IMG/VR virus record: IMGVR_UViG_2534682330_000007
Length of the DNA: 49,277 nucleotides
Strand: one strand, 5' to 3'
DNA from: a virus
Lineage: Duplodnaviria > Heunggongvirae > Uroviricota > Caudoviricetes
Shown here: one piece after another, positions 8,940 to 36,393 of the stretch
Layout of the letters: every line of letters starts with the position of its first letter
Numbering within the stretch: position 1 is the first letter of the stretch
Made by a program: the position numbers and the translations under genes
Notes under the pieces: model-generated
Databases searched by the model: none
The model's input: the letters and a program-made list of their open reading frames with translations, nothing else
Told to the model about the DNA's origin: nothing

Positions 8940-9389
8940 TTACTTAACCAATGATGCTGCATATTCGATAAGGTAAAGCTTTGGGGCCAGCCAAATTTTT
9001 AACCAAGTCATATTGGTTACTACACCAATAATAAAAATCCCCCACAGAGTCAAAACTCCAACCAATGGCATGATAAGAAGGTTAATATCTCCTTTGCTAT
9101 CCCAAACCATTGTCGGCCTGTATTTGGGATTTCCCCTCTCCCATGAGTATCCTTCATCACCGATTTTACCTGTCTCAACTCTTTGGCACTGCTTCTTCAT
9201 AAACCAGAAAACCAGTGGGATTGTTAGAATGGCTATTAATGTTTTAATCAGACTGTCAACCATATTCCATAGCAGCAACTGATGAACAACATCAGGAATC
9301 TGCGCTTGGCTGAATGAAACAGCCGCGTCTATTCCATTGCTGGCTTTTTGCAGTAGTTCTACGAGAATCTTGTTTGCTTGTTCTTCCAT
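8940..9389 (-). CDS. Hypothetical inner-membrane protein, 149 aa (insertion relative to lambda)
   Basis: Two long hydrophobic segments (LIKTLIAILTIPLVFWFM and INLLIMPLVGVLTLWGIFIIGVV); lies between ea10 and ral where lambda has only a short spacer. Confidence 0.6.
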   Translation of the reverse strand: MEEQANKILVELLQKASNGIDAAVSFSQAQIPDVVHQLLLWNMVDSLIKTLIAILTIPLVFWFMKKQCQRVETGKIGDEGYSWERGNPKYRPTMVWDSKGDINLLIMPLVGVLTLWGIFIIGVVTNMTWLKIWLAPKLYLIEYAASLVK

Positions 9390-9448
9390 ATATCCCCTTG
9401 ATTGTAATAAGCATGAAATTATTTACGGCCAAAAAATAAAGGCCACCA

Positions 9449-9649
9449 TCAGGCAGCCTTGTTATTCTGTTTACCAAGTTCTCTGGCAATCATTGCCGTC
9501 GTTCGTATTGCCCATTTATCGACATATTTCCCATCCTCCATTACAGGAAACATTTCTTCAGGCTTAACCATGCATTCCGATTGCAGCTTGCATCCATTGC
9601 ATCGCTCGAATTGTCCACACCATTGATTCTTATCAATAGTCGCAGTCAT
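9449..9649 (-). CDS. ral: Ral (restriction alleviation)
   Basis: 66 aa MTATIDKNQWCGQFERCNGCKLQSECMVKPEEMFPVMEDGKYVDKWAIRTTAMIARELGKQNNKAA matches lambda Ral. Confidence 0.9.
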   Translation of the reverse strand: MTATIDKNQWCGQFERCNGCKLQSECMVKPEEMFPVMEDGKYVDKWAIRTTAMIARELGKQNNKAA

Positions 9650-9777
9650 ACGGATAGTCCTGGTATTGTTCCATCACATCCTGAGGATGCTCTTCGAACT
9701 CTTCAAATTCTTCTTCCATATCTCACCTCAAATAAGTGGTTTGCTGCCTAATTTCATTTTCTGGCGACCAACACAAG

Positions 9778-10050
9778 TCATCTTGCTGTCAGCTGTTTGG
9801 ATTTCCTGTAGCCTGCCGCGTAAATGGCTACATTTGGAAGACAAGTTGAGCCTTCATATTTTCTGGTCAACGTTGTCAGTGTTATTACTTCTGCTCTCAT
9901 TACTGGTTTGCGTTTGCATTGTAAGACCACTCGTGAAGGGGTTGGCCTGTGTAGCTTGTCAGAGCTGATCGCCTCCTGACTTTGCAGGTTTGCACGACGA
10001 GCTCTACGGCGAGAAGCTGCGGTGCCTTTAAATTCTGTTTTTCTGGACAT
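9778..10050 (-). CDS. N-like transcription antiterminator (non-lambda type), about 91 aa
   Basis: ATG at 10050 preceded by GGAGG; N-terminal arginine-rich motif KGTAASRRRARRANLQ like the RNA-binding motif of N proteins; first gene downstream of pL and nutL. Confidence 0.7.
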   Translation of the reverse strand: MSRKTEFKGTAASRRRARRANLQSQEAISSDKLHRPTPSRVVLQCKRKPVMRAEVITLTTLTRKYEGSTCLPNVAIYAAGYRKSKQLTAR

Positions 10051-10148
10051 AGATTCCTCCCGAATAAACTTTGGCGATGCAATCTCGAAGCTCCTCCTGA
10101 GACGGTTGCTTCGGCATTGCATCCCACAGCTTATGTGGTTGGGTGGTC

Positions 10149-10195
10149 TGGCTTTTCAGCCACGTAGTCGAGTGTTCGACGTTGTTTAAAGAGCC
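10149..10195 (-). promoter_or_regulatory. nutL candidate: boxA (GGCTCTTTA) then 24 nt then boxB hairpin (TGGCT-GAAA-AGCCA)
   Basis: Read on the minus strand between pL and N; same boxA-24 nt-boxB architecture as the nutR candidate at 12106-12151. Confidence 0.55.
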
Positions 10196-10240
10196 TGCCA
10201 GTCTGTTCCATTTGGCTTCCAGCGTCCTGCTGATGACTAA

Positions 10241-10269
10241 ATAGTACGATATGTACTTTACTTGGTCAA
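10241..10269 (-). promoter_or_regulatory. pL candidate (-35 TTGACC, 17-bp spacer, -10 TACTAT) overlapped by palindromic operator AGTACGATATGTACT (10243-10257)
   Basis: Sigma-70-like hexamers with ideal spacing on the minus strand about 180 nt upstream of N; perfect 15-bp palindrome in the spacer. Confidence 0.55.
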
Positions 10270-10454
10270 TACGATTTGTTCTATTGAGGAGTGGTTTTTT
10301 ACAACGCTTTGTATTTTATAGTGTTGTTTTTTAGCGTGGGTGTATTGCCTCGGCGATGTAGGGAGAGATCAGAATTGCGTTGTTTAGTGAGTTGTATCTA
10401 TTAATTTTGAAATAAATACAATTGGTTATGCGTTTTTTGGGGGGCGTTAGGCAA

Positions 10455-10485
10455 AGAAAACCCGGCGCTGAGGCCGGGTTATGTA
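10455..10485 (-). terminator. Intrinsic terminator candidate ending the cI operon (CCCGGC-loop-GCCGGG then U-run)
   Basis: Minus-strand hairpin followed by TTTTCTTTG, located just 3' of the small ORF and before the pL/oL region. Confidence 0.5.
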
Positions 10486-10489
10486 GGCA

Positions 10490-10591
10490 TTATGCGGCTT
10501 TTTTGGTGTGTGCTGACGAGCGAGCCAGAATCTCGTTGATGAGAGATCTCAGGGTCATTGCATCTTTGTGCAGAGTGGACATGGTTTTCAT
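10490..10591 (-). CDS. Small ORF, 33 aa, with Shine-Dalgarno; below ORF-track cutoff
   Basis: Hand translation: MKTMSTLHKDAMTLRSLINEILARSSAHTKKAA; GAGG 7 nt upstream of ATG; followed directly by a terminator. Confidence 0.35.
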   Translation of the reverse strand: MKTMSTLHKDAMTLRSLINEILARSSAHTKKAA

Positions 10592-10660
10592 TGCGTTTCC
10601 TCGGTTTATTTTATGGTACTAGCCTAGTTCAAATAGACTATATGAAATCTTGATTTACTA

Positions 10661-11041
10661 TTAAGGCCATTGGGTTGGTGGAAGATCGTGGGTTTTTATC
10701 TGCGTATTTGCTTCCACACATTTATCATAGTCTAATTTCTCTACAGCAAGCAATAGTGATTCAGCATACATCAATCCTTGTTTGATGTTCATAACATTTA
10801 TGCTTGCACTTGCGGCATCCATATCCTTTGCTGTCTCTACCATGTGCTCAAAGCTTTGAGCAATAGAGTCAACACCGTTTTTCATCCTTGTAAACACTAA
10901 TTTTAGCTCATCAAGGCTTGGATTCGTTAGATCATACATCCCATGCATTCCATGGGCTTCGAATAACTCTGACAACGATCTAAGGGCGAAGTTCACAGAA
11001 TCAATAACTTGGTCGTACTTTTTCTTATCAAGATCATTCAT
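10661..11041 (-). CDS. Hypothetical protein, 126 aa, in the rexAB slot downstream of cI
   Basis: ORF track; same strand as cI, 66 bp downstream of the cI stop; no resemblance to RexA/RexB noticed. Confidence 0.65.
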   Translation of the reverse strand: MNDLDKKKYDQVIDSVNFALRSLSELFEAHGMHGMYDLTNPSLDELKLVFTRMKNGVDSIAQSFEHMVETAKDMDAASASINVMNIKQGLMYAESLLLAVEKLDYDKCVEANTQIKTHDLPPTQWP

Positions 11042-11107
11042 TAAAAATATAACCTTTTAACTAATTGATATTGCTGCATTTATATCAATATATGCATTTC
11101 ACATATA

Positions 11108-11767
11108 TCACCCAAACGTCTCTTCAGGCCACTGGCTAGCGATAACTTTCCCCACAACGGAACAACTCTCATTGCATGGGATCATTGGGTACTGTGGGTT
11201 TAGTGGTTGTAGAAACACCTGACCGCTATCCCTGATCAGTTTCTTGAAGGTAAACTCATCACCACCAAGTCTGGCTATGCAGAAATCGCCGGGCTCAACA
11301 GCTTGCTCTGGGTCAACCAGAATTAACATCCCGTCAGGAAAACTAGGTTTGGAACCTGTTGGTGCGGTCATTGAGTTACCTTCAACCTCAAGCCAGAATG
11401 CAGAGTCACTGGCTTTTTTGGTTGTGCTTACCAATCTCTCCGCATCGCCTTTGGTAAAGGTTCTGAGTTCTGGAGAGAACATCCCAGCCTGAACATGAGA
11501 AAAAACAGGGTACTCATATTGTTTTTTAACTGGGGCCGATGAGTATTCGCCAACAGGTGAAAATGTCCCGTCGTGGTTGAATGATATGTTATCAATACCA
11601 AGGTATTTAAACACCACACCAATATCACTAAGAGATGGATGACGAGATCCGCGCAACCAGTGTCCAATTCCACCCTGCGTCATACCTAGCTCTTCGGCTA
11701 ACTTCTCTTGAGTTATGCCGAGCTCTTTCATTCTGGATCTAGCCAGTTCATACCATTTCATTTTCAT
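11108..11767 (-). CDS. cI: CI repressor, hybrid: heterologous HTH N-terminal domain plus lambda-type C-terminal dimerisation/autocleavage domain
   Basis: C-terminal 130 aa ([28 protein letters not shown] ... SQWPEETFG) matches lambda CI; N-terminal HTH ([25 protein letters not shown]) does not; start taken at ATG 11767 (ATG 11761 also possible). Confidence 0.9.
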
Positions 11768-11879
11768 GTCCTTATTATTACGCTCTGTACTGGAACCATC
11801 CATGCACAATGTGTATTTTTTGCTTGTGTTTAAGAAGTACATATTGTATTTTTTTATTTGTGGTTACTATGGAGGGCAT
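11768..11879. promoter_or_regulatory. oR region with divergent pRM and pR and operator-like sites of form TAC-N-GTA (e.g. ATTACGCTCTGTACT 11778-11792, AGTACATATTGTATT 11836-11850)
   Basis: 112-bp cI-cro intergenic region; operator-like sequences resemble the oL palindrome; cI start has almost no leader, consistent with a pRM-type transcript. Confidence 0.55.
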
Positions 11880-12095
11880 ATGAGCAACCTACGAAAATAT
11901 CGAGAGTCACTGAATATCTCTCAAACAACACTTGCTAAGGCAGTTGGATGCACACAGGGAGCTATCGGACATTGGGAATCTGGTCGTCGCTTCCCAGACC
12001 TTAAAACATGCCGTGCTCTTGTTGCGTGTCTAAACAAGTTAGGCGCAAAAGTAAGTCTTGATGATGTGTTTCCGCCGGAGCACAAAGCTGCGTAA
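11880..12095 (+). CDS. cro: Cro-like repressor (HTH, non-lambda immunity), 71 aa
   Basis: ATG at 11880 after GGAGGG; HTH motif ISQTTLAKAVGCTQGAIGHWESG; first rightward gene of the immunity region. Confidence 0.85.
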   Translation: MSNLRKYRESLNISQTTLAKAVGCTQGAIGHWESGRRFPDLKTCRALVACLNKLGAKVSLDDVFPPEHKAA

Positions 12096-12105
12096 TAAGC
12101 GGAGC

Positions 12106-12151
12106 CGCTCTTTGTAACAACGGACATTCGTCCTACGTCGCTGAAAAGCGA
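12106..12151 (+). promoter_or_regulatory. nutR candidate: boxA CGCTCTTT then 24 nt then boxB hairpin TCGCT-GAAA-AGCGA
   Basis: Located between cro and cII; boxA matches the lambdoid consensus; GAAA-loop hairpin. Confidence 0.55.
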
Positions 12152-12236
12152 GTCCCAAGATATCTGACCAACTAAGGCCATATGCGTTTCCACGCATACC
12201 TTTCAACTAACTATTCACTATTGGAAATCTTAAGAA

Positions 12237-12533
12237 ATGGAACGAACAAGTTACAGCAAACTATCACAGCGTGACGTTGATCGCGCAGAAACAGATTTAC
12301 TCATCAACCTATCAACTCTTACCCAGCGCGGTCTGGCAAAGATGATTGGCTGTCATGAATCGAAGATAAGCAGAACGGACTGGAGATTTATTGCTTCGGT
12401 CTTGTGTGCTTTCGGAATGGCATCAGACATCAGTCCGATTAGCAGGGCTTTTAAGTATGCGCTTGCTGAAATCACAAAGAAAAAATCCCCGGCCGCCACC
12501 GAGGATTTTAAGCAAATTGATATGCAATTCTGA
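12237..12533 (+). CDS. cII: CII-like transcriptional activator
   Basis: 98 aa; C-terminus ITKKKSPAATEDFKQIDMQF resembles lambda CII C-terminus; position between cro and O. Confidence 0.85.
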   Translation: MERTSYSKLSQRDVDRAETDLLINLSTLTQRGLAKMIGCHESKISRTDWRFIASVLCAFGMASDISPISRAFKYALAEITKKKSPAATEDFKQIDMQF

Positions 12534-12565
12534 GGGAATTACTGGATCTATCAACAGGAGTCATT

Positions 12566-13465
12566 ATGACAAATACAGCAAAAATACTCAACTTCGGCAG
12601 AGGTAACTTTGCCGGACAGGAGCGTAATGTGGCAGATCTCGATGATGGTTACGCCAGACTATCAAATATGCTGCTTGAGGCTTATTCGGGCGCAGATCTG
12701 ACCAAGCGACAGTTTAAAGTGCTGCTTGCCATTCTGCGTAAAACCTATGGGTGGAATAAACCAATGGACAGAATCACCGATTCTCAACTTAGCGAGATTA
12801 CAAAGTTACCTGTCAAACGGTGCAATGAAGCCAAGTTAGAACTCGTCAGAATGAATATTATCAAGCAGCAAGGCGGCATGTTTGGACCAAATAAAAACAT
12901 CTCAGAATGGTGTATCCCTCAAAACGAGGGAAAATCCCCTAAAACGAGGGATAAAACATCCCTCAAATTGGGGGATTGCTATCCCTCAAAACAGGGGGAC
13001 ACAAAAGACACTATTACAAAAGAAAAAAGAAAAGATTATTCGTCCGAGAATTCTGGCGAATCCTCTGACCAGCCAGAAAACGATCTTTCTGTGGTTAAAC
13101 CGGATGCTGCAATTCAGAGCGGCAGTAAGTGGGGAACAGCAGAAGACCTGACCGCCGCAGAGTGGATGTTTGACATGGTGAAGACCATCGCGCCATCAGC
13201 CAGAAAACCGAATTTTGCTGGGTGGGCTAACGATATCCGCCTGATGCGTGAACGTGACGGACGTAACCACCGCGATATGTGTGTGCTTTTCCGCTGGGCC
13301 TGCCAGGACAACTTCTGGTCCGGTAACGTGCTGAGTCCGGCCAAACTCCGCGACAAGTGGACCCAGCTCGAAATCAACCGTAACAAGCAACAGGCTGGCG
13401 TGACAGCCGGAAAACCAAAACTCGACCTGACAAACACTGACTGGATTTACGGGGTGGATCTATGA
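12566..13465 (+). CDS. O: Replication initiator O (lambda type)
   Basis: 299 aa MTNTAKILNFGRGNFAGQERNVADLDDGYARLSNMLLEAYSGADLTKRQFKVLLAILRKTYGW matches lambda O. Confidence 0.97.
   Translation: MTNTAKILNFGRGNFAGQERNVADLDDGYARLSNMLLEAYSGADLTKRQFKVLLAILRKTYGWNKPMDRITDSQLSEITKLPVKRCNEAKLELVRMNIIKQQGGMFGPNKNISEWCIPQNEGKSPKTRDKTSLKLGDCYPSKQGDTKDTITKEKRKDYSSENSGESSDQPENDLSVVKPDAAIQSGSKWGTAEDLTAAEWMFDMVKTIAPSARKPNFAGWANDIRLMRERDGRNHRDMCVLFRWACQDNFWSGNVLSPAKLRDKWTQLEINRNKQQAGVTAGKPKLDLTNTDWIYGVDL
12913..13045. other. Replication origin: four iterons (TCCCTCAAAACGAGGGA-like) plus AT-rich region inside O
   Basis: Four direct repeats at about 12915, 12935, 12957 and 12982 followed by an A/T-rich stretch, as in ori lambda. 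Confidence 0.9.
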
Positions 13466-14163
13466 AAAACATCGCCGCACAGATGGTTAACTTTGACCGT
13501 GAGCAGATGCGTCGGATCGCCAACAACATGCCGGAACAGTACGACGAAAAGCCACAGGTACAGCAGGTAGCGCAGATCATCAACGGTGTGTTCAGCCAGT
13601 TACTGGCAACTTTCCCGGCGAGTCTGGCTAACCGTGACCAGAACGAACTGAACGAAATCCGCCGCCAGTGGGTTCTGGCTTTCCGGGAAAACGGGATCAC
13701 CACAATGGAACAGGTTAACGCAGGAATGCGCGTAGCCCGTCGGCAGAATCGACCATTTCTGCCATCACCCGGGCAGTTTGTTGCATGGTGCCGGGAAGAA
13801 GCATCCGTTATCGCCGGACTGCCAAACGTCAGCGAGCTGGTTGATATGGTTTACGAGTATTGCCGGAAGCGAGGCCTGTATCCGGATGCGGAGTCTTATC
13901 CGTGGAAATCAAACGCGCACTACTGGCTGGTTACCAACCTGTATCAGAACATGCGGGCCAATGCGCTTACTGATGCGGAATTACGCCGTAAGGCCGCAGA
14001 TGAGCTTGTCCATATGACTGCGAGAATTAACCGTGGTGAGGCGATCCCTGAACCAGTAAAACAACTTCCTGTTATGGGCGGTAGACCTCTAAATCGTGCA
14101 CAGGCTCTGGCGAAGATCGCAGAAATTAAAGCTAAGTTCGGACTGAAAGGAGCAAGTGTATGA
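13462..14163 (+). CDS. P: Replication protein P (DnaB loader)
   Basis: 233 aa MKNIAAQMVNFDREQMRRIANNMPEQYDEKPQVQQVAQIINGVFSQLLATFPASLANRDQNELNEIRRQW matches lambda P. Confidence 0.97.
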   Translation: MKNIAAQMVNFDREQMRRIANNMPEQYDEKPQVQQVAQIINGVFSQLLATFPASLANRDQNELNEIRRQWVLAFRENGITTMEQVNAGMRVARRQNRPFLPSPGQFVAWCREEASVIAGLPNVSELVDMVYEYCRKRGLYPDAESYPWKSNAHYWLVTNLYQNMRANALTDAELRRKAADELVHMTARINRGEAIPEPVKQLPVMGGRPLNRAQALAKIAEIKAKFGLKGASV

Positions 14164-14450
14164 CGGGCAAAGAGGCAATTATTCATTACCTGGGGACGCA
14201 TAAGAGCTTCTGTGCGCAGGACGTTGCTGCGGTAACAGGCGCAACAGTAACCAGTATAAATCAGGCTGCGGTTAAAATGGCACGGGCAGGTCTTCTGGTT
14301 ATCGAAGGTAAGGTCTGGCGAACGGTGTATTACCGGTTTGCTACCAGGGAAGAACGGGAAGGAAAGATGAGCACGAACCTGATTTTTAAGGAGTGTCGCC
14401 AGAGTGCCGCGATGAAACGGGTATTGGCAGTATATGGAGTTAAAAGATGA
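14160..14450 (+). CDS. ren: Ren (Rex exclusion resistance)
   Basis: 96 aa MTGKEAIIHYLGTHKSFCAQDVAAVTGATVTSINQAAVKMARAGLLVIEGKVWRTVYYRFATREEREGK matches lambda Ren. Confidence 0.95.
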   Translation: MTGKEAIIHYLGTHKSFCAQDVAAVTGATVTSINQAAVKMARAGLLVIEGKVWRTVYYRFATREEREGKMSTNLIFKECRQSAAMKRVLAVYGVKR

Positions 14451-14475
14451 CCATCTACATCACTGAGCTAATAAC

Positions 14476-14507
14476 AGGCCTGCTGGTAATCGCAGGCCTT
14501 TTTATTT
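14476..14507 (+). terminator. Rho-independent terminator (tR2-like) between ren and ninB
   Basis: AGGCCTGC-N8-GCAGGCCT stem-loop followed by TTTTATTT. Confidence 0.7.
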
Positions 14508-33839: not shown

Positions 33840-36393
33840 ACCGGTAGGCGATCTGGTCGTTGATTTGAGTCTGGATGCGGCCAGATTTGACGAGCAGATG
33901 GCCAGAGTCAGGCGTCATTTTTCCGGTACGGAAAGTGATGCGAAAAGAACAGCGGCAGTCGTTGAACAGTCGCTGAGCCGACAGGCGCTGGCTGCACAGA
34001 AAGCGGGGATTTCCGTCGGGCAGTATAAAGCCGCCATGCGTATGCTGCCTGCACAGTTCACCGACGTGGCCACGCAGCTTGCAGGCGGGCAAAGTCCGTG
34101 GCTGATCCTGCTGCAACAGGGGGGGCAGGTGAAGGACTCCTTCGGCGGGATGATCCCCATGTTCAGGGGGCTTGCCGGTGCGATCACCCTGCCGATGGTG
34201 GGGGCCACCTCGCTGGCGGTGGCGACCGGTGCGCTGGCGTATGCCTGGTATCAGGGCAACTCAACCCTGTCCGATTTCAACAAAACGCTGGTCCTTTCCG
34301 GCAATCAGGCCGGGCTGACGGCAGATCGTATGCTGGTCCTGTCCAGAGCCGGGCAGGCGGCAGGGCTGACGTTTAACCAGACCAGCGAGTCACTCAGCGC
34401 ACTGGTTAAGGCGGGGGTAAGCGGTGAGGCTCAGATTGCGTCCATCAGCCAGAGTGTGGCGCGTTTCTCCTCTGCATCCGGCGTGGAGGTGGACAAGGTC
34501 GCTGAAGCCTTCGGGAAGCTGACCACTGACCCGACGTCGGGGCTGACGGCGATGGCACGCCAGTTCCATAACGTGACGGCGGAGCAGATTGCGTATGTTG
34601 CTCAGTTGCAGCGTTCCGGCGATGAAGCCGGGGCATTGCAGGCGGCGAACGAGGCCGCAACGAAAGGGTTTGATGACCAGACCCGCCGCCTGAAAGAGAA
34701 CATGGGCACGCTGGAGACCTGGGCAGACAGGACTGCGCGGGCATTCAAATCCATGTGGGATGCGGTGCTGGATATTGATCGTCCTGATACCGCGCAGGAG
34801 ATGCTGATTAAGGCAGAGGCTGCGTTTAAGAAAGCAGACGACATCTGGAATCTGCGCAAGGATGATTATTTTGTTAACGATGAAGCGCGGGCGCGTTACT
34901 GGGATGATCGTGAAAAGGCCCGTCTTGCGCTTGAAGCCGCCCGAAAGAAGGCTGAGCAGCAGACTCAACAGGACAAAAATGCGCAGCAGCAGAGCGATAC
35001 CGAAGCGTCACGGCTGAAATATACCGAAGAGGCGCAGAAGGTTTACGAACGGCTGCAGACACCGCTGGAGAAATATACCGCCCGTCAGGAAGAACTGAAC
35101 AAGGCACTGAAAGACGGGAAAATCCTGCAGGCAGATTACAACACGCTGATGGCGGCGGCGAAAAAGGATTATGAAGCGACGCTGAAAAAGCCGAAACAGT
35201 CCGGCGTGAAGGTGTCTGCGGGCGATCGTCAGGAAGACAGTGCTCATGCTGCCCTGCTGACGCTTCAGGCTGAACTCCGGACGCTGGAGAAGCATGCCGG
35301 AGCAAATGAGAAAATCAGCCAGCAGCGCCGGGATTTGTGGAAGGCGGAGAGTCAGTTCGCGGTACTGGAGGAGGCGGCGCAACGTCGCCAGCTGTCTGCA
35401 CAGGAGAAATCCCTGCTGGCGCATAAAGATGAGACGCTGGAGTACAAACGCCAGCTGGCTGCACTTGGCGACAAGGTTACGTATCAGGAGCGCCTGAACG
35501 CGCTGGCGCAGCAGGCGGATAAATTCGCACAGCAGCAACGGGCAAAACGGGCCGCCATTGATGCGAAAAGCCGGGGGCTGACTGACCGGCAGGCAGAACG
35601 GGAAGCCACGGAACAGCGCCTGAAGGAACAGTATGGCGATAATCCGCTGGCGCTGAATAACGTCATGTCAGAGCAGAAAAAGACCTGGGCGGCTGAAGAC
35701 CAGCTTCGCGGGAGCTGGATGGCAGGCCTGAAGTCCGGCTGGAGTGAGTGGGAAGAGAGCGCCACGGACAGTATGTCGCAGGTTAAAAGTGCAGCCACGC
35801 AGACCTTTGATGGTATTGCACAGAATATGGCGGCGATGCTGACCGGCAGTGAGCAGAACTGGCGCAGCTTTACCCGTTCCGTGCTGTCCATGATGACAGA
35901 AATTCTGCTTAAGCAGGCAATGGTGGGGATTGTCGGGAGTATCGGCAGCGCCATTGGCGGGGCTGTTGGTGGCGGCGCATCCGCGTCAGGCGGTACAGCC
36001 ATTCAGGCAGCTGCGGCGAAATTCCATTTTGCGACCGGGGGATTTACGGGAACCGGCGGCAAATATGAGCCAGCGGGGATTGTTCACCGTGGTGAATTTG
36101 TCTTCACGAAGGAGGCAACCAGCCGGATTGGCGTGGGGAATCTCTACCGGCTGATGCGCGGCTATGCCACCGGTGGTTATGTCGGTGGCACCGGAAGTCC
36201 GGCGCAAATGCGGCGTTCAGAGGGTATCAGGTTTGAGCAGAACAACAACATGGTGATTCAGAACGACGGTACGAATGGTCTGCCAGGTCCACAGATGATG
36301 AAAGCAGTGTATGACATGGCCCGCAAGGGTGCCCGTGATGAAATTCAGACACAGATGCGTGATGGTGGCCTGTTCTCCGGAGGTGGACGATGA
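33832..36393 (+). CDS. H: Tail tape measure protein H
   Basis: 853 aa, lambda gpH match. Confidence 0.97.
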   Translation: MAEPVGDLVVDLSLDAARFDEQMARVRRHFSGTESDAKRTAAVVEQSLSRQALAAQKAGISVGQYKAAMRMLPAQFTDVATQLAGGQSPWLILLQQGGQVKDSFGGMIPMFRGLAGAITLPMVGATSLAVATGALAYAWYQGNSTLSDFNKTLVLSGNQAGLTADRMLVLSRAGQAAGLTFNQTSESLSALVKAGVSGEAQIASISQSVARFSSASGVEVDKVAEAFGKLTTDPTSGLTAMARQFHNVTAEQIAYVAQLQRSGDEAGALQAANEAATKGFDDQTRRLKENMGTLETWADRTARAFKSMWDAVLDIDRPDTAQEMLIKAEAAFKKADDIWNLRKDDYFVNDEARARYWDDREKARLALEAARKKAEQQTQQDKNAQQQSDTEASRLKYTEEAQKVYERLQTPLEKYTARQEELNKALKDGKILQADYNTLMAAAKKDYEATLKKPKQSGVKVSAGDRQEDSAHAALLTLQAELRTLEKHAGANEKISQQRRDLWKAESQFAVLEEAAQRRQLSAQEKSLLAHKDETLEYKRQLAALGDKVTYQERLNALAQQADKFAQQQRAKRAAIDAKSRGLTDRQAEREATEQRLKEQYGDNPLALNNVMSEQKKTWAAEDQLRGSWMAGLKSGWSEWEESATDSMSQVKSAATQTFDGIAQNMAAMLTGSEQNWRSFTRSVLSMMTEILLKQAMVGIVGSIGSAIGGAVGGGASASGGTAIQAAAAKFHFATGGFTGTGGKYEPAGIVHRGEFVFTKEATSRIGVGNLYRLMRGYATGGYVGGTGSPAQMRRSEGIRFEQNNNMVIQNDGTNGLPGPQMMKAVYDMARKGARDEIQTQMRDGGLFSGGGR

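Follow-up and report, generated by a model that had tools for sequence, protein, structure and literature searches.

A VT2-Sakai-type immunity region joined to lambda replication genes in a mosaic lambdoid prophage

Genes and regulatory sites of the early region

Within the window (the whole stretch of DNA analysed, 49,277 nucleotides), the early region carries the following genes, promoters and terminators.

9778-10050, minus strand: N antiterminator gene (90 aa; Pfam N_peptide, E=5e-32; arginine-rich motif GTAASRRRARRANLQ)
10241-10269, minus strand: predicted promoter pL, TTGACC-17-TACTAT, from a consensus scan; 1 mismatch to the pL of AP000422
10459-10480, minus strand: t_imm, predicted intrinsic terminator of the cI/immunity transcript, from a terminator scan; 4 mismatches to the AP000422 terminator
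10661-11041, minus strand: orf126 (moron), 126 aa, in the slot equivalent to rexAB; phrog_16322, of unknown function
11108-11767, minus strand: cI repressor gene (Pfam HTH_3, E=2e-10; Peptidase_S24, E=1e-28)
11774-11802, minus strand: predicted promoter pRM, TGGATG-17-AATAAT; identical to the AP000422 pRM
11824-11852, plus strand: predicted promoter pR, TTGTGT-17-TATTTT; 2 mismatches to the AP000422 pR
11880-12095, plus strand: cro, 71 aa (Pfam HTH_3)
12181-12206, plus strand: tR1 region, identical to the AP000422 feature
12237-12533, plus strand: cII (Pfam Phage_CII, E=1e-31)
12246-12259, minus strand: predicted pRE/CII-binding site TTGC-N6-TTGT, inside cII
12566-14450, plus strand: lambda replication module, comprising O (12566-13465), P (13462-14163) and ren (14160-14450)

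AP000422, the record of phage VT2-Sakai, annotates oL1-3, oR1-3, pL, pR, pRM, nutL and nutR, all labelled 'putative'. Both pL and t_imm were recovered independently by consensus scans, and pR and pRM fell below the threshold of a generic sigma-70 consensus scan. The terminator sits in a lambda-like remnant (10358-10482), which is 89% identical to lambda 35702-35828. The hexamer TACTAT at 11865-11870 was considered as an alternative -10 of pR and was rejected for its position, 9 nt from the cro ATG and beside the Shine-Dalgarno sequence. The start of cI is placed at ATG 11761 in AP000422; the ATG at 11767 is probably the one used, on a leaderless pRM transcript. Orf126 is cargo and lies outside the switch itself. 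Its segment is absent from VT2-Sakai and E212, and Pfam and PADLOC scans of orf126 and a 33-aa ORF gave no match.

The sequence-only reading had described a hybrid lambdoid immunity region, and protein identities and the joints with lambda bear this out. The C-terminal S24 autocleavage/oligomerisation domain of CI is that of lambda (135/136 residues identical) and is fused, as had been proposed, to a different HTH domain, with an identity of only about 30% to that of lambda; at the DNA level, cI resembles lambda only over 11107-11518 (94% identity). Cro, cII and N had been called non-lambda, which is borne out: Cro has no significant match to lambda Cro, and N and cII are diverged homologues of their lambda counterparts (local identities of 22/51 and 32/81, respectively). 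The CII protein shares 94/98 residues with VT2-Sakai and 92-93% with HK97/HK022, and the segment from nutR to cII (12105-12540) is 97.7% identical to mEp234. Assignment of O, P and ren to lambda was likewise correct (298/299, 231/233 and 91/96 residues identical), the DNA from 12472 on matching lambda at 97.5% identity. The joints with lambda fall at 11518/11519, within cI, and at approximately 12472, at the end of cII. The region adds a further case of mosaic exchange at known module boundaries, which here lie between the cI domains, where cII ends and where the pL transcript starts.

Operators and the CI/Cro switch

The six 17-bp operators annotated in AP000422 were mapped on the window, where five are identical and one has a single base changed. 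Ranks are those of a leave-one-out position weight matrix (PWM) over 49,261 positions, and no strand is assigned to these sites.

10242-10258: oL1, TAGTACGATATGTACTT; identical to VT2-Sakai; rank 2
10267-10283: oL2, CAATACGATTTGTTCTA; one substitution relative to VT2-Sakai; rank 4
10300-10316: oL3, TACAACGCTTTGTATTT; identical to VT2-Sakai; rank 6
11776-11792: oR3, TATTACGCTCTGTACTG; identical to VT2-Sakai; rank 10
11802-11818: oR2, ATGCACAATGTGTATTT; identical to VT2-Sakai; rank 8; adjoins the pRM -35 hexamer
11835-11851: oR1, AAGTACATATTGTATTT; identical to VT2-Sakai; rank 2

At least five operator-like sites of the form TAC-N-GTA had been noticed in oL and oR from the sequence; six were found, forming a coherent family with a consensus of roughly AAGTAC-N5-GTACTT. 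Three of the 17-mers have an exact TAC-N5-GTA and three are one base off, namely oR2 (CAC for TAC), oL3 (AAC for TAC) and oL2, whose variant is found in further natural loci. Site oL1 overlaps pL at its -10 hexamer and spacer, and oR1, with the top full-PWM score of the six, covers part of the pR spacer and its -10 hexamer. The overlap with the pL spacer had been noted for AGTACGATATGTACT, which was however described as a perfect palindrome; its 5-bp arms AGTAC/GTACT are complementary (5/7 symmetric pairs), and its centre GATAT is asymmetric.

The bare motif TAC-N5-GTA is only weakly enriched across the window (9 occurrences against 4.8 expected; 2/100 shuffles reach 9). This count is unconvincing alone and was replaced by the leave-one-out PWM and a conservation analysis. 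The six sites have the six best PWM scores in the window, and the proposed motif search placed all of them in the top 10 positions (leave-one-out ranks 2 to 10). Among natural variants of the region, none of 18 TAC/GTA core columns varied in oR (22 variants) and one of 18 varied in oL (24 variants); about 40% of the flanking columns varied in the same variants (23/61 and 37/89, respectively). The operator signal resides in the clustering of the sites and the extended motif, not in the bare pattern. A seventh site at 10414-10430 (AAATACAATTGGTTATG, score 12.3) was dropped, as it has just one good half-site.

It is unlikely, though not negligibly so, that only some of the six 17-mers are true sites, with oR2, oL3 or oL2 mis-assigned and with fewer sites or another form of cooperativity, as in 933W. 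Such a reading would draw on the deviating cores of these three sites, on the low leave-one-out scores of oR3, oR2 and oL3, and on the 33-bp spacing of oR1-oR2 and oL2-oL3, which is unlike lambda; for 933W, five operators (two in oL) and a lack of adjacent-site cooperativity have been reported. All six sites, deviant cores included, are nevertheless kept across the 22 to 24 natural variants while their flanks vary, and phage ST64T/L likewise has six sites in a closely similar layout. The centre spacings of the operators (oL 25/33 bp, oR 33/26 bp) are not those of lambda (24/20 and 24/23), so that pairwise cooperativity of the lambda kind at oR1-oR2 is an assumption made by analogy. No direct biochemical proof of VT2-Sakai CI or Cro binding at the six sites was found in the literature, and the sole EMSA paper found used lambda CI on these operators and obtained micromolar binding only.

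What the analysis shows is the identities of sequences, where the sites lie, how they are conserved and how the RNA folds; from the sequence, and by analogy with lambda, a scheme of the switch can be proposed. CI dimers bound at the 17-bp operators oR1-3 and oL1-3 would repress pR and pL, and CI at oR2, beside the pRM -35 hexamer, probably activates transcription of cI. The recognition helices of the two proteins are close (TQGAIGHW in Cro, TQGGIGHW in CI), and Cro would occupy the same sites and shut off pRM. Because the C-terminal domain of CI is lambda's own, autocleavage and cooperativity are expected: the domain, in which the Ala-Gly cleavage site motif VQAGMF is present, would undergo RecA-stimulated autocleavage at Ala-Gly, and it should supply both pairwise and long-range cooperativity.

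N and the nut sites

The two candidate nut sites lie exactly where they are expected, one downstream of pL, the other of cro.

10149-10195, minus strand: nutL, with boxA GGCTCTTT (10195 to 10188), a 25-nt spacer and boxB TGGCT-GAAA-AGCCA (10162 to 10149)
12106-12151, plus strand: nutR, with boxA CGCTCTTT (12106-12113), a 24-nt spacer and boxB TCGCT-GAAA-AGCGA (12138-12151)

Both sites share one architecture of boxA, a spacer hairpin, TACG and a boxB with a 5-bp stem. The spacer hairpin is GTCGA-ACAC-TCGAC in nutL (10167-10180) and GGAC-ATTC-GTCC in nutR (12122-12133), each followed by TACG. The 40 bases that AP000422 marks as nutR correspond to 12106-12145 of the window and are identical in the two, and the VT2-Sakai nutL differs from the one described here in its spacer-hairpin loop (CTC against ACAC) and spacing (24 against 25 nt). 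BoxB has the 4-nt loop GAAA in nutL, nutR and 80/80 related loci, and the loop GCAA in nutL of POCJ13. The nut candidates had been read as a consistent pair with GAAA-loop boxB elements, which stands; the identical 24-nt spacing also claimed does not, as the same definitions give 24 nt for nutR and 25 nt for nutL. Nor is this spacing unusual, since it is that of the known two-hairpin NUT design of the H-19B type.

H-19B nutR has been described experimentally as two hairpins, one in the spacer and one in boxB, and N-NUT antitermination of the H-19B/933W type is attributed to Neely and Friedman 2000, as cited in PMC3526286. The H-19B-type sequences compared here were mEp234 (EF120460) and Min27. 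The nutR of mEp234 is homologous to that of the window, with an identical spacer hairpin GGACATTCGTCC and TACG and a shared boxB stem (TCGCT/AGCGA). In contrast, the H-19B-type boxB loop is GACAA (5 nt, as also in P22) instead of GAAA (4 nt), and the H-19B-type nutL spacer measures 43 nt against 25 nt here. The N proteins differ as well: N is about 41-42% identical to the 127-aa H-19B/933W/Min27/HK97 type, whose central segment of about 37 aa it lacks, and has the arginine-rich motif AASRRRARRANLQ where the H-19B type has SRSRRRERLKAKAL, with the C-terminus CLPNVA(I/L)YAAGYRKSKQLTAR conserved between them. N is 97.8% identical to N of VT2-Sakai. Because the boxB loop is GAAA and not GACAA, the nut sites are, by their sequence, a sister variant (VT2-Sakai type) of the H-19B-like two-hairpin design and not H-19B itself.

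In structure prediction, whose failure had been named as a ground for refuting the nut candidates, nutL and nutR fold in two hairpins (nutL at -12.2 kcal/mol, z = -3.1), but the full 46-nt nutR prefers an alternative fold with boxA-boxB pairing, and its z is only -1.67. That fold, and the function of lambda nut sites, whose spacer measures about 8 to 9 nt and lacks a hairpin, might suggest that neither the long spacer nor its hairpin matters, N requiring boxB alone, or that the nut candidates are not functional. We consider this very improbable. Against it, three unrelated spacer stems (GGAC/GTCC, GTCGA/TCGAC and GATTC(A)/(T)GAATC) occupy a common position in both nut sites of Sakai-type and H-19B-type phages, with TACG always next, and three compensatory boxB stems (TCGCT, TGGCT, GCGCT) occur within the same architecture. 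Moreover, changes in nutL across 80 IMG/VR loci are confined to the spacer-hairpin loop (5 loop variants, stem intact), and the H-19B spacer is a footprinted binding region of NusA and Rho. An Rfam scan of 9000-14500 (E<=1) found no RNA family at the nut sites and only a chance snoRNA match.

With functional two-hairpin nut sites, and by analogy with the H-19B work, derepression would allow N to bind the boxB hairpins, with their GAAA tetraloop, at both nut sites, and the N-modified RNA polymerase would then transcribe past tR1 and the leftward terminators. No biochemical study of the recognition of a 4-nt GNRA tetraloop boxB by such an N was found in the literature.

Immunity type and comparison with known phages

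Taken together, the region almost certainly houses the lysis-lysogeny switch of a mosaic lambdoid prophage together with its early antitermination module, VT2-Sakai (Sp5) immunity being joined here to lambda O-P-ren. The first 83 residues of the repressor (83/83) and the whole of Cro (71/71) are identical to VT2-Sakai, and the complete CI differs at a single position (216/217). The same immunity type occurs in Stx2 phage II, the Morioka Stx1 phage, 1717, Nil2, the PA-series (Stx2a) phages, 2B8 and E212. A 2.9-kb query from N to the start of O, which spans the immunity region plus lambda-like and widely shared segments, matched at least partially in 2,182 of 5,426 complete E. coli genomes. The primary paper on the VT2-Sakai operators is reportedly that of Fattah et al. 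2000.

The sequence-only reading had concluded that the specificity could not be matched to lambda, 434 or P22, and it is indeed unlike these, as well as unlike HK97, HK022 and phi80. Alignment to HK97, HK022 and phi80, three of the classical phages suggested for comparison, matched only cII (HK97/HK022) and N (HK97); the cI N-domain and Cro found no match in these phages or in lambda, and the P22 C2 and 434 repressor structures gave distant matches only. Taken alone, this would leave the region encoding an undescribed immunity specificity, of which there is now hardly any chance, given that the cI N-domain and Cro are exactly identical in VT2-Sakai, Stx2 phage II, 1717, Nil2, 2B8 and others. 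The repressor and operators thus match a characterised type, and the specificity is not new. The operators are already present as AP000422 annotation and are discussed in PMC4587872, and CI of this type is treated as CI 'clade I' in PMC8951638. The immunity type is already known, with VT2-Sakai annotation dating from about 1999-2000, and is real but ordinary. No new mechanism is implied; the main value of the result is the correct annotation of the prophage and its assignment to a known immunity group. Judged from sequence, homoimmunity with Sp5/VT2-Sakai-type Stx phages would be expected, which bears on superinfection by and recombination with Stx phages.

Gene order in VT2-Sakai is the same as in the window. 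The differences are in the replication genes, VT2-Sakai having an HK022-like O and a DnaB-type P where the window has lambda O, P and ren, and in the cargo between cI and t_imm, which is H0092/H0093 in VT2-Sakai and orf126 here.

Beyond the Stx-type phages, the operator family and a recognition helix of the form TQG[GA]I[GA]H[WY] are shared with Salmonella phage ST64T/L, an epsilon34-like Salmonella phage (103203_sal5) and Pseudomonas phiPSA1, the helices being very similar across these phages and closest in ST64T/L. For epsilon34, the operator WTACRAWWTGTAT has been proposed and the nearest repressors named as L, VT2-Sa and Nil2 (PMC2629481). In its immC region (c2-cro), ST64T/L has six sites of the TAC-N5-GTA family, with centre spacings of 25/30 bp in oL and 34/26 bp in oR compared with 25/33 and 33/26 here, and its helices (TQGAIGHW in C2, TQGAIGHY in Cro) are near-identical to those of the window, whose Cro is 69% identical to that of ST64T/L. 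Its repressor is 55% identical in the N-domain and 46% in the C-terminal domain, the latter not being the lambda domain, and its antiterminator (gene 24), nut sites and host genus differ. Since the helices are near-identical, the consensus the same and the layout similar, a cross-genus immunity group could exist; it is possible, though doubtful, that E. coli Stx-type prophages and Salmonella P22-like phages form one such group with full or partial cross-immunity and, as a separate point, that N uses a true GNRA boxB.

The architecture of the region is that of lambda, i.e. N-nutL-pL/oL ... cI-oR-cro-nutR-tR1-cII-O-P-ren, with O, P and ren 95 to 99.7% identical and the t_imm remnant conserved as given above. 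Lambda Cro and the HTH_3 Cro found here are of different fold families, and the lambda operators (TATCACCGC...) are unrelated to those of the window. Lambda N has about 107 aa (the lambda RefSeq record annotates a longer ORF of 133 aa) compared with 90 aa here. The lambda boxB loop has 5 nt against 4 nt, its short boxA-boxB spacer corresponds to 24-25 nt with a hairpin in the window, and lambda rexAB is replaced here by other cargo.

Gene layout, immunity type and mosaic structure

A canonical lambdoid early region occupies positions 9778-14450 of the window, and the span singled out by the sequence-only reading (10149-12151) extends exactly from the end of the nutL boxB to the end of the nutR boxB. 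The region is arranged as follows:

9778-10050, minus strand: N (Pfam N_peptide)
Between N and cI, in this order: nutL, pL/oL, terminator, cargo gene
10459-10480: intrinsic (immunity) terminator
10490-10591, minus strand: 33-aa ORF MKTMSTLHKDAMTLRSLINEILARSSAHTKKAA, with a GAGGAA Shine-Dalgarno sequence
10661-11041, minus strand: cargo gene, 126 aa (phrog_16322, unknown function)
11108-11767, minus strand: cI (Pfam HTH_3 and Peptidase_S24)
Between cI and cro: oR
11880-12095: cro (Pfam HTH_3)
Between cro and cII: nutR and tR1 (12181-12206)
12237-12533: cII (Pfam Phage_CII)
3' of cII: O (Pfam Phage_rep_O), P (Pfam Phage_lambda_P) and ren

The immunity type is already known. CI (216/217 residues), Cro (71/71), N (87/89 aligned residues, 97.8%, tblastn) and cII (94/98) are identical or nearly so to those of the Shiga-toxin phage VT2-Sakai (AP000422), and the CI and Cro matches overturn the proposal that the specificity was unmatched. 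Megablast with 9700-12600 gave 95-97% identity to VT2-Sakai, Stx2 phage II, the Morioka Stx1 phage, PA-series Stx2a phages, E212 and 2B8, the cargo segment being the sole unmatched part. At 99% identity or above, tblastn found the cI N-domain in at least 56 phage records and Cro in at least 59. The 2.9-kb query was matched, at least partly, by 2,182 of 5,426 complete E. coli genomes, a count that does not measure the immunity genes alone, since the query includes lambda-like and widely shared segments. This CI type has been placed in 'clade I' of the repressors of Stx phages, with 61% overall identity to lambda CI (PMC8951638), and listed as cI2c/cro4 (PMC3430580). Cro also matched PDB 28tn, a 'lambda repressor-like protein' of 82 aa (E=4.5e-17, residues 1-69), so that this Cro family seems to have a close structural template.

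Pairwise alignments with lambda upheld the description of the region as a hybrid. O (298/299), P (231/233), ren (91/96) and the cI C-terminal domain (135/136) are nearly identical to lambda, whereas the cI N-domain (~30% over 47 residues), N (22/51, local alignment) and cII (32/81) are not, and Cro gave no significant pairwise match. At the DNA level lambda matches are confined to three segments: 10358-10482 at 89%, with the immunity terminator inside it; 11107-11518 at 94%, spanning two-thirds of cI from its 3' end; and the sequence from 12472 on at 97.5%. One junction thus lies inside cI and separates its two domains.

In position the cargo gene corresponds to lambda rexAB: it lies between cI and the immunity terminator, a slot filled by unrelated genes in VT2-Sakai (H0092/H0093), E212 (an 858-nt ORF) and mEp234 (hicAB). 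It had no Pfam or PADLOC match, and occurs together with this immunity in only 12 of the 5,426 complete E. coli genomes. The 33-aa ORF, directly upstream of the terminator, had no family match in the searches run. The region is a routine mosaic of VT2-Sakai immunity, lambda replication genes and a variable cargo slot, and it is of low interest; the earlier observation was sound apart from two small errors.

Operators and promoters

The AP000422 annotation of three oL and three oR 17-mers, pL, pR and pRM was mapped onto the window. The putative operators are identical to those of VT2-Sakai except where stated:

10242-10258: oL1, TAGTACGATATGTACTT
10267-10283: oL2, CAATACGATTTGTTCTA (1 substitution)
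10300-10316: oL3, TACAACGCTTTGTATTT
11776-11792: oR3, TATTACGCTCTGTACTG
11802-11818: oR2, ATGCACAATGTGTATTT
11835-11851: oR1, AAGTACATATTGTATTT

At least five TAC/GTA sites had been counted in oL and oR; there are six, three with an exact TAC-N5-GTA core and three one base away from it. In the 'perfect palindrome' AGTACGATATGTACT the 5-bp arms are perfect but the 5-bp centre is asymmetric. The bare TAC-N5-GTA motif is weakly enriched across the window (9 observed, 4.8 expected). With a symmetrised matrix (PWM) built from the six 17-mers, the six best scores in the window are these sites, and in leave-one-out scans each ranked between 2 and 10 of 49,261. The eighth-best match, AAATACAATTGGTTATG at 10414-10430, holds one perfect operator half-site and lies ~100 bp to the right of oL3 within the lambda-like remnant; it is probably due to chance.

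Operator variation was assessed in 80 IMG/VR loci retrieved with the N protein, using those that carry the window's immunity (22 different sequences for oR and 24 for oL). Core TAC/GTA columns varied in 0/18 (oR) and 1/18 (oL) cases, against 23/61 and 37/89 of the flanking columns. The recognition helices of cI (13 residues) and Cro (GCTQGAIGHWESG), taken from the protein sequences, are nearly alike, as expected for two proteins that share operators. The literature search turned up no biochemical assay in which VT2-Sakai CI was tried on these putative operators; in the sole EMSA work found on these sites the protein was lambda CI, with binding at 3.7-7.7 uM, some ten-fold weaker than to the best cognate sites of lambda CI in that assay.

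The overlap of an operator-like site with the pL spacer was borne out, since oL1 overlies both the -10 hexamer and the spacer of pL (TTGACC-17-TACTAT). oR2 adjoins the -35 hexamer of pRM, whose -10 hexamer AATAAT (11779 to 11774) leaves 6 nt between its end and the ATG at 11767. This ATG precedes the cI start annotated in VT2-Sakai (11761) by two codons, and the cI mRNA may thus lack a leader, like that of lambda. The cI start is placed at three or more different positions in public records. Identities, positions, conservation and folds were observed directly; for the remaining mechanism, modelled on lambda and H-19B, CI would repress pL and pR from operators ~1.6 kb apart (oL to oR), its lambda C-terminal domain should confer RecA-dependent cleavage and oligomerisation, and N acting on the nut sites would carry transcription past tR1.

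Nut sites and N

12106-12151: nutR, CGCTCTTT + 24 nt + TCGCT-GAAA-AGCGA
10195 to 10149: nutL, GGCTCTTT + 25 nt + TGGCT-GAAA-AGCCA

Both sites have the GAAA-loop boxB that had been noted; the equal 24-nt spacing claimed for them holds for nutR only. Each spacer contains a hairpin, GGAC-ATTC-GTCC in nutR and GTCGA-ACAC-TCGAC in nutL, followed by TACG, and the hairpin and boxB segments fold as two hairpins (-11.1 and -12.2 kcal/mol; z = -2.5 and about -3.2). Taken at its full 46 nt, nutR folds preferentially into an alternative structure, with boxA paired to boxB.

Among the 80 loci nutR is nearly invariant, and the only differences in nutL are in the loop of its spacer hairpin (CTC, ACAC, ACTC, ATC, GCAC), so that its spacing is 24 or 25 nt; the 25-nt form of the window occurs in 31 loci. 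The boxB stems TCGCT, TGGCT and GCGCT differ by compensatory changes. In POCJ13, whose N is a variant (83% identical) and whose repressor is different, the nut architecture is kept, with GCAA and GAAA loops.

In H-19B, nutR forms two hairpins, and NusA and Rho bind the spacer (PMC3526286, where Neely and Friedman 2000 is cited on alternative NUT structures). The window's nutR and the H-19B-type nutR of mEp234 are homologues that share the spacer hairpin and boxB stem but differ in the boxB loop, which is GAAA in the window and GACAA in mEp234. The window's 90-aa N is ~41% identical to the 127-aa H-19B N, with the same C-terminus and a different arginine-rich motif. The natural GNRA-tetraloop boxB is one of two residual points of note, the other being a possible cross-immunity with Salmonella phage L.

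In L013-L092 (the 80 loci), one N-nutL module, with N at least 97% identical, is found next to five or more unrelated operator sets, lambda's included. The switch in sequence comes directly after a conserved CAGCGTCCTGCTGA where the pL transcript starts (window about 10196-10235), and marks a sharp recombination boundary between antitermination and immunity modules.

The operator family outside E. coli

Among classical phages the closest relative is Salmonella phage L/ST64T, whose Cro is 69% and whose C2 N-domain is 55% identical to the window's. Scanning ST64T with the window's PWM recovered six sites, at oL CAATACAAAATGTACTT (two copies) and AAATACTATGTGTATGA, and at oR TAGTACGAAATGTATTA, ACACACATATTGTATTA and TATTACGAGATGTATTG. 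Centre spacings are 25/30 and 34/26 bp in ST64T, compared with 25/33 and 33/26 bp in the window. Operator-family regions in the two comparison loci are:

1584-1655 and 2391-2467: ST64T (L008)
1412-1428 and 2310-2351: phiPSA1 (L010)

The same pattern was found in an epsilon34-like Salmonella phage and in Pseudomonas phage phiPSA1, whose operators are of the TAC-N5-GTA family and whose host is Pseudomonas syringae. The recognition helices of phiPSA1 are very similar to those of the window, and those of ST64T near-identical. The operator family is therefore real, yet it is not new: the epsilon34 genome paper (PMC2629481) proposed the operator WTACRAWWTGTAT and named the repressors of L, VT2-Sa and Nil2 as nearest in the N-domain. 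Judged from these sequences, immunity specificity could be shared or overlapping across genera, and cross-immunity between the window's prophage and Salmonella phage L is possible.
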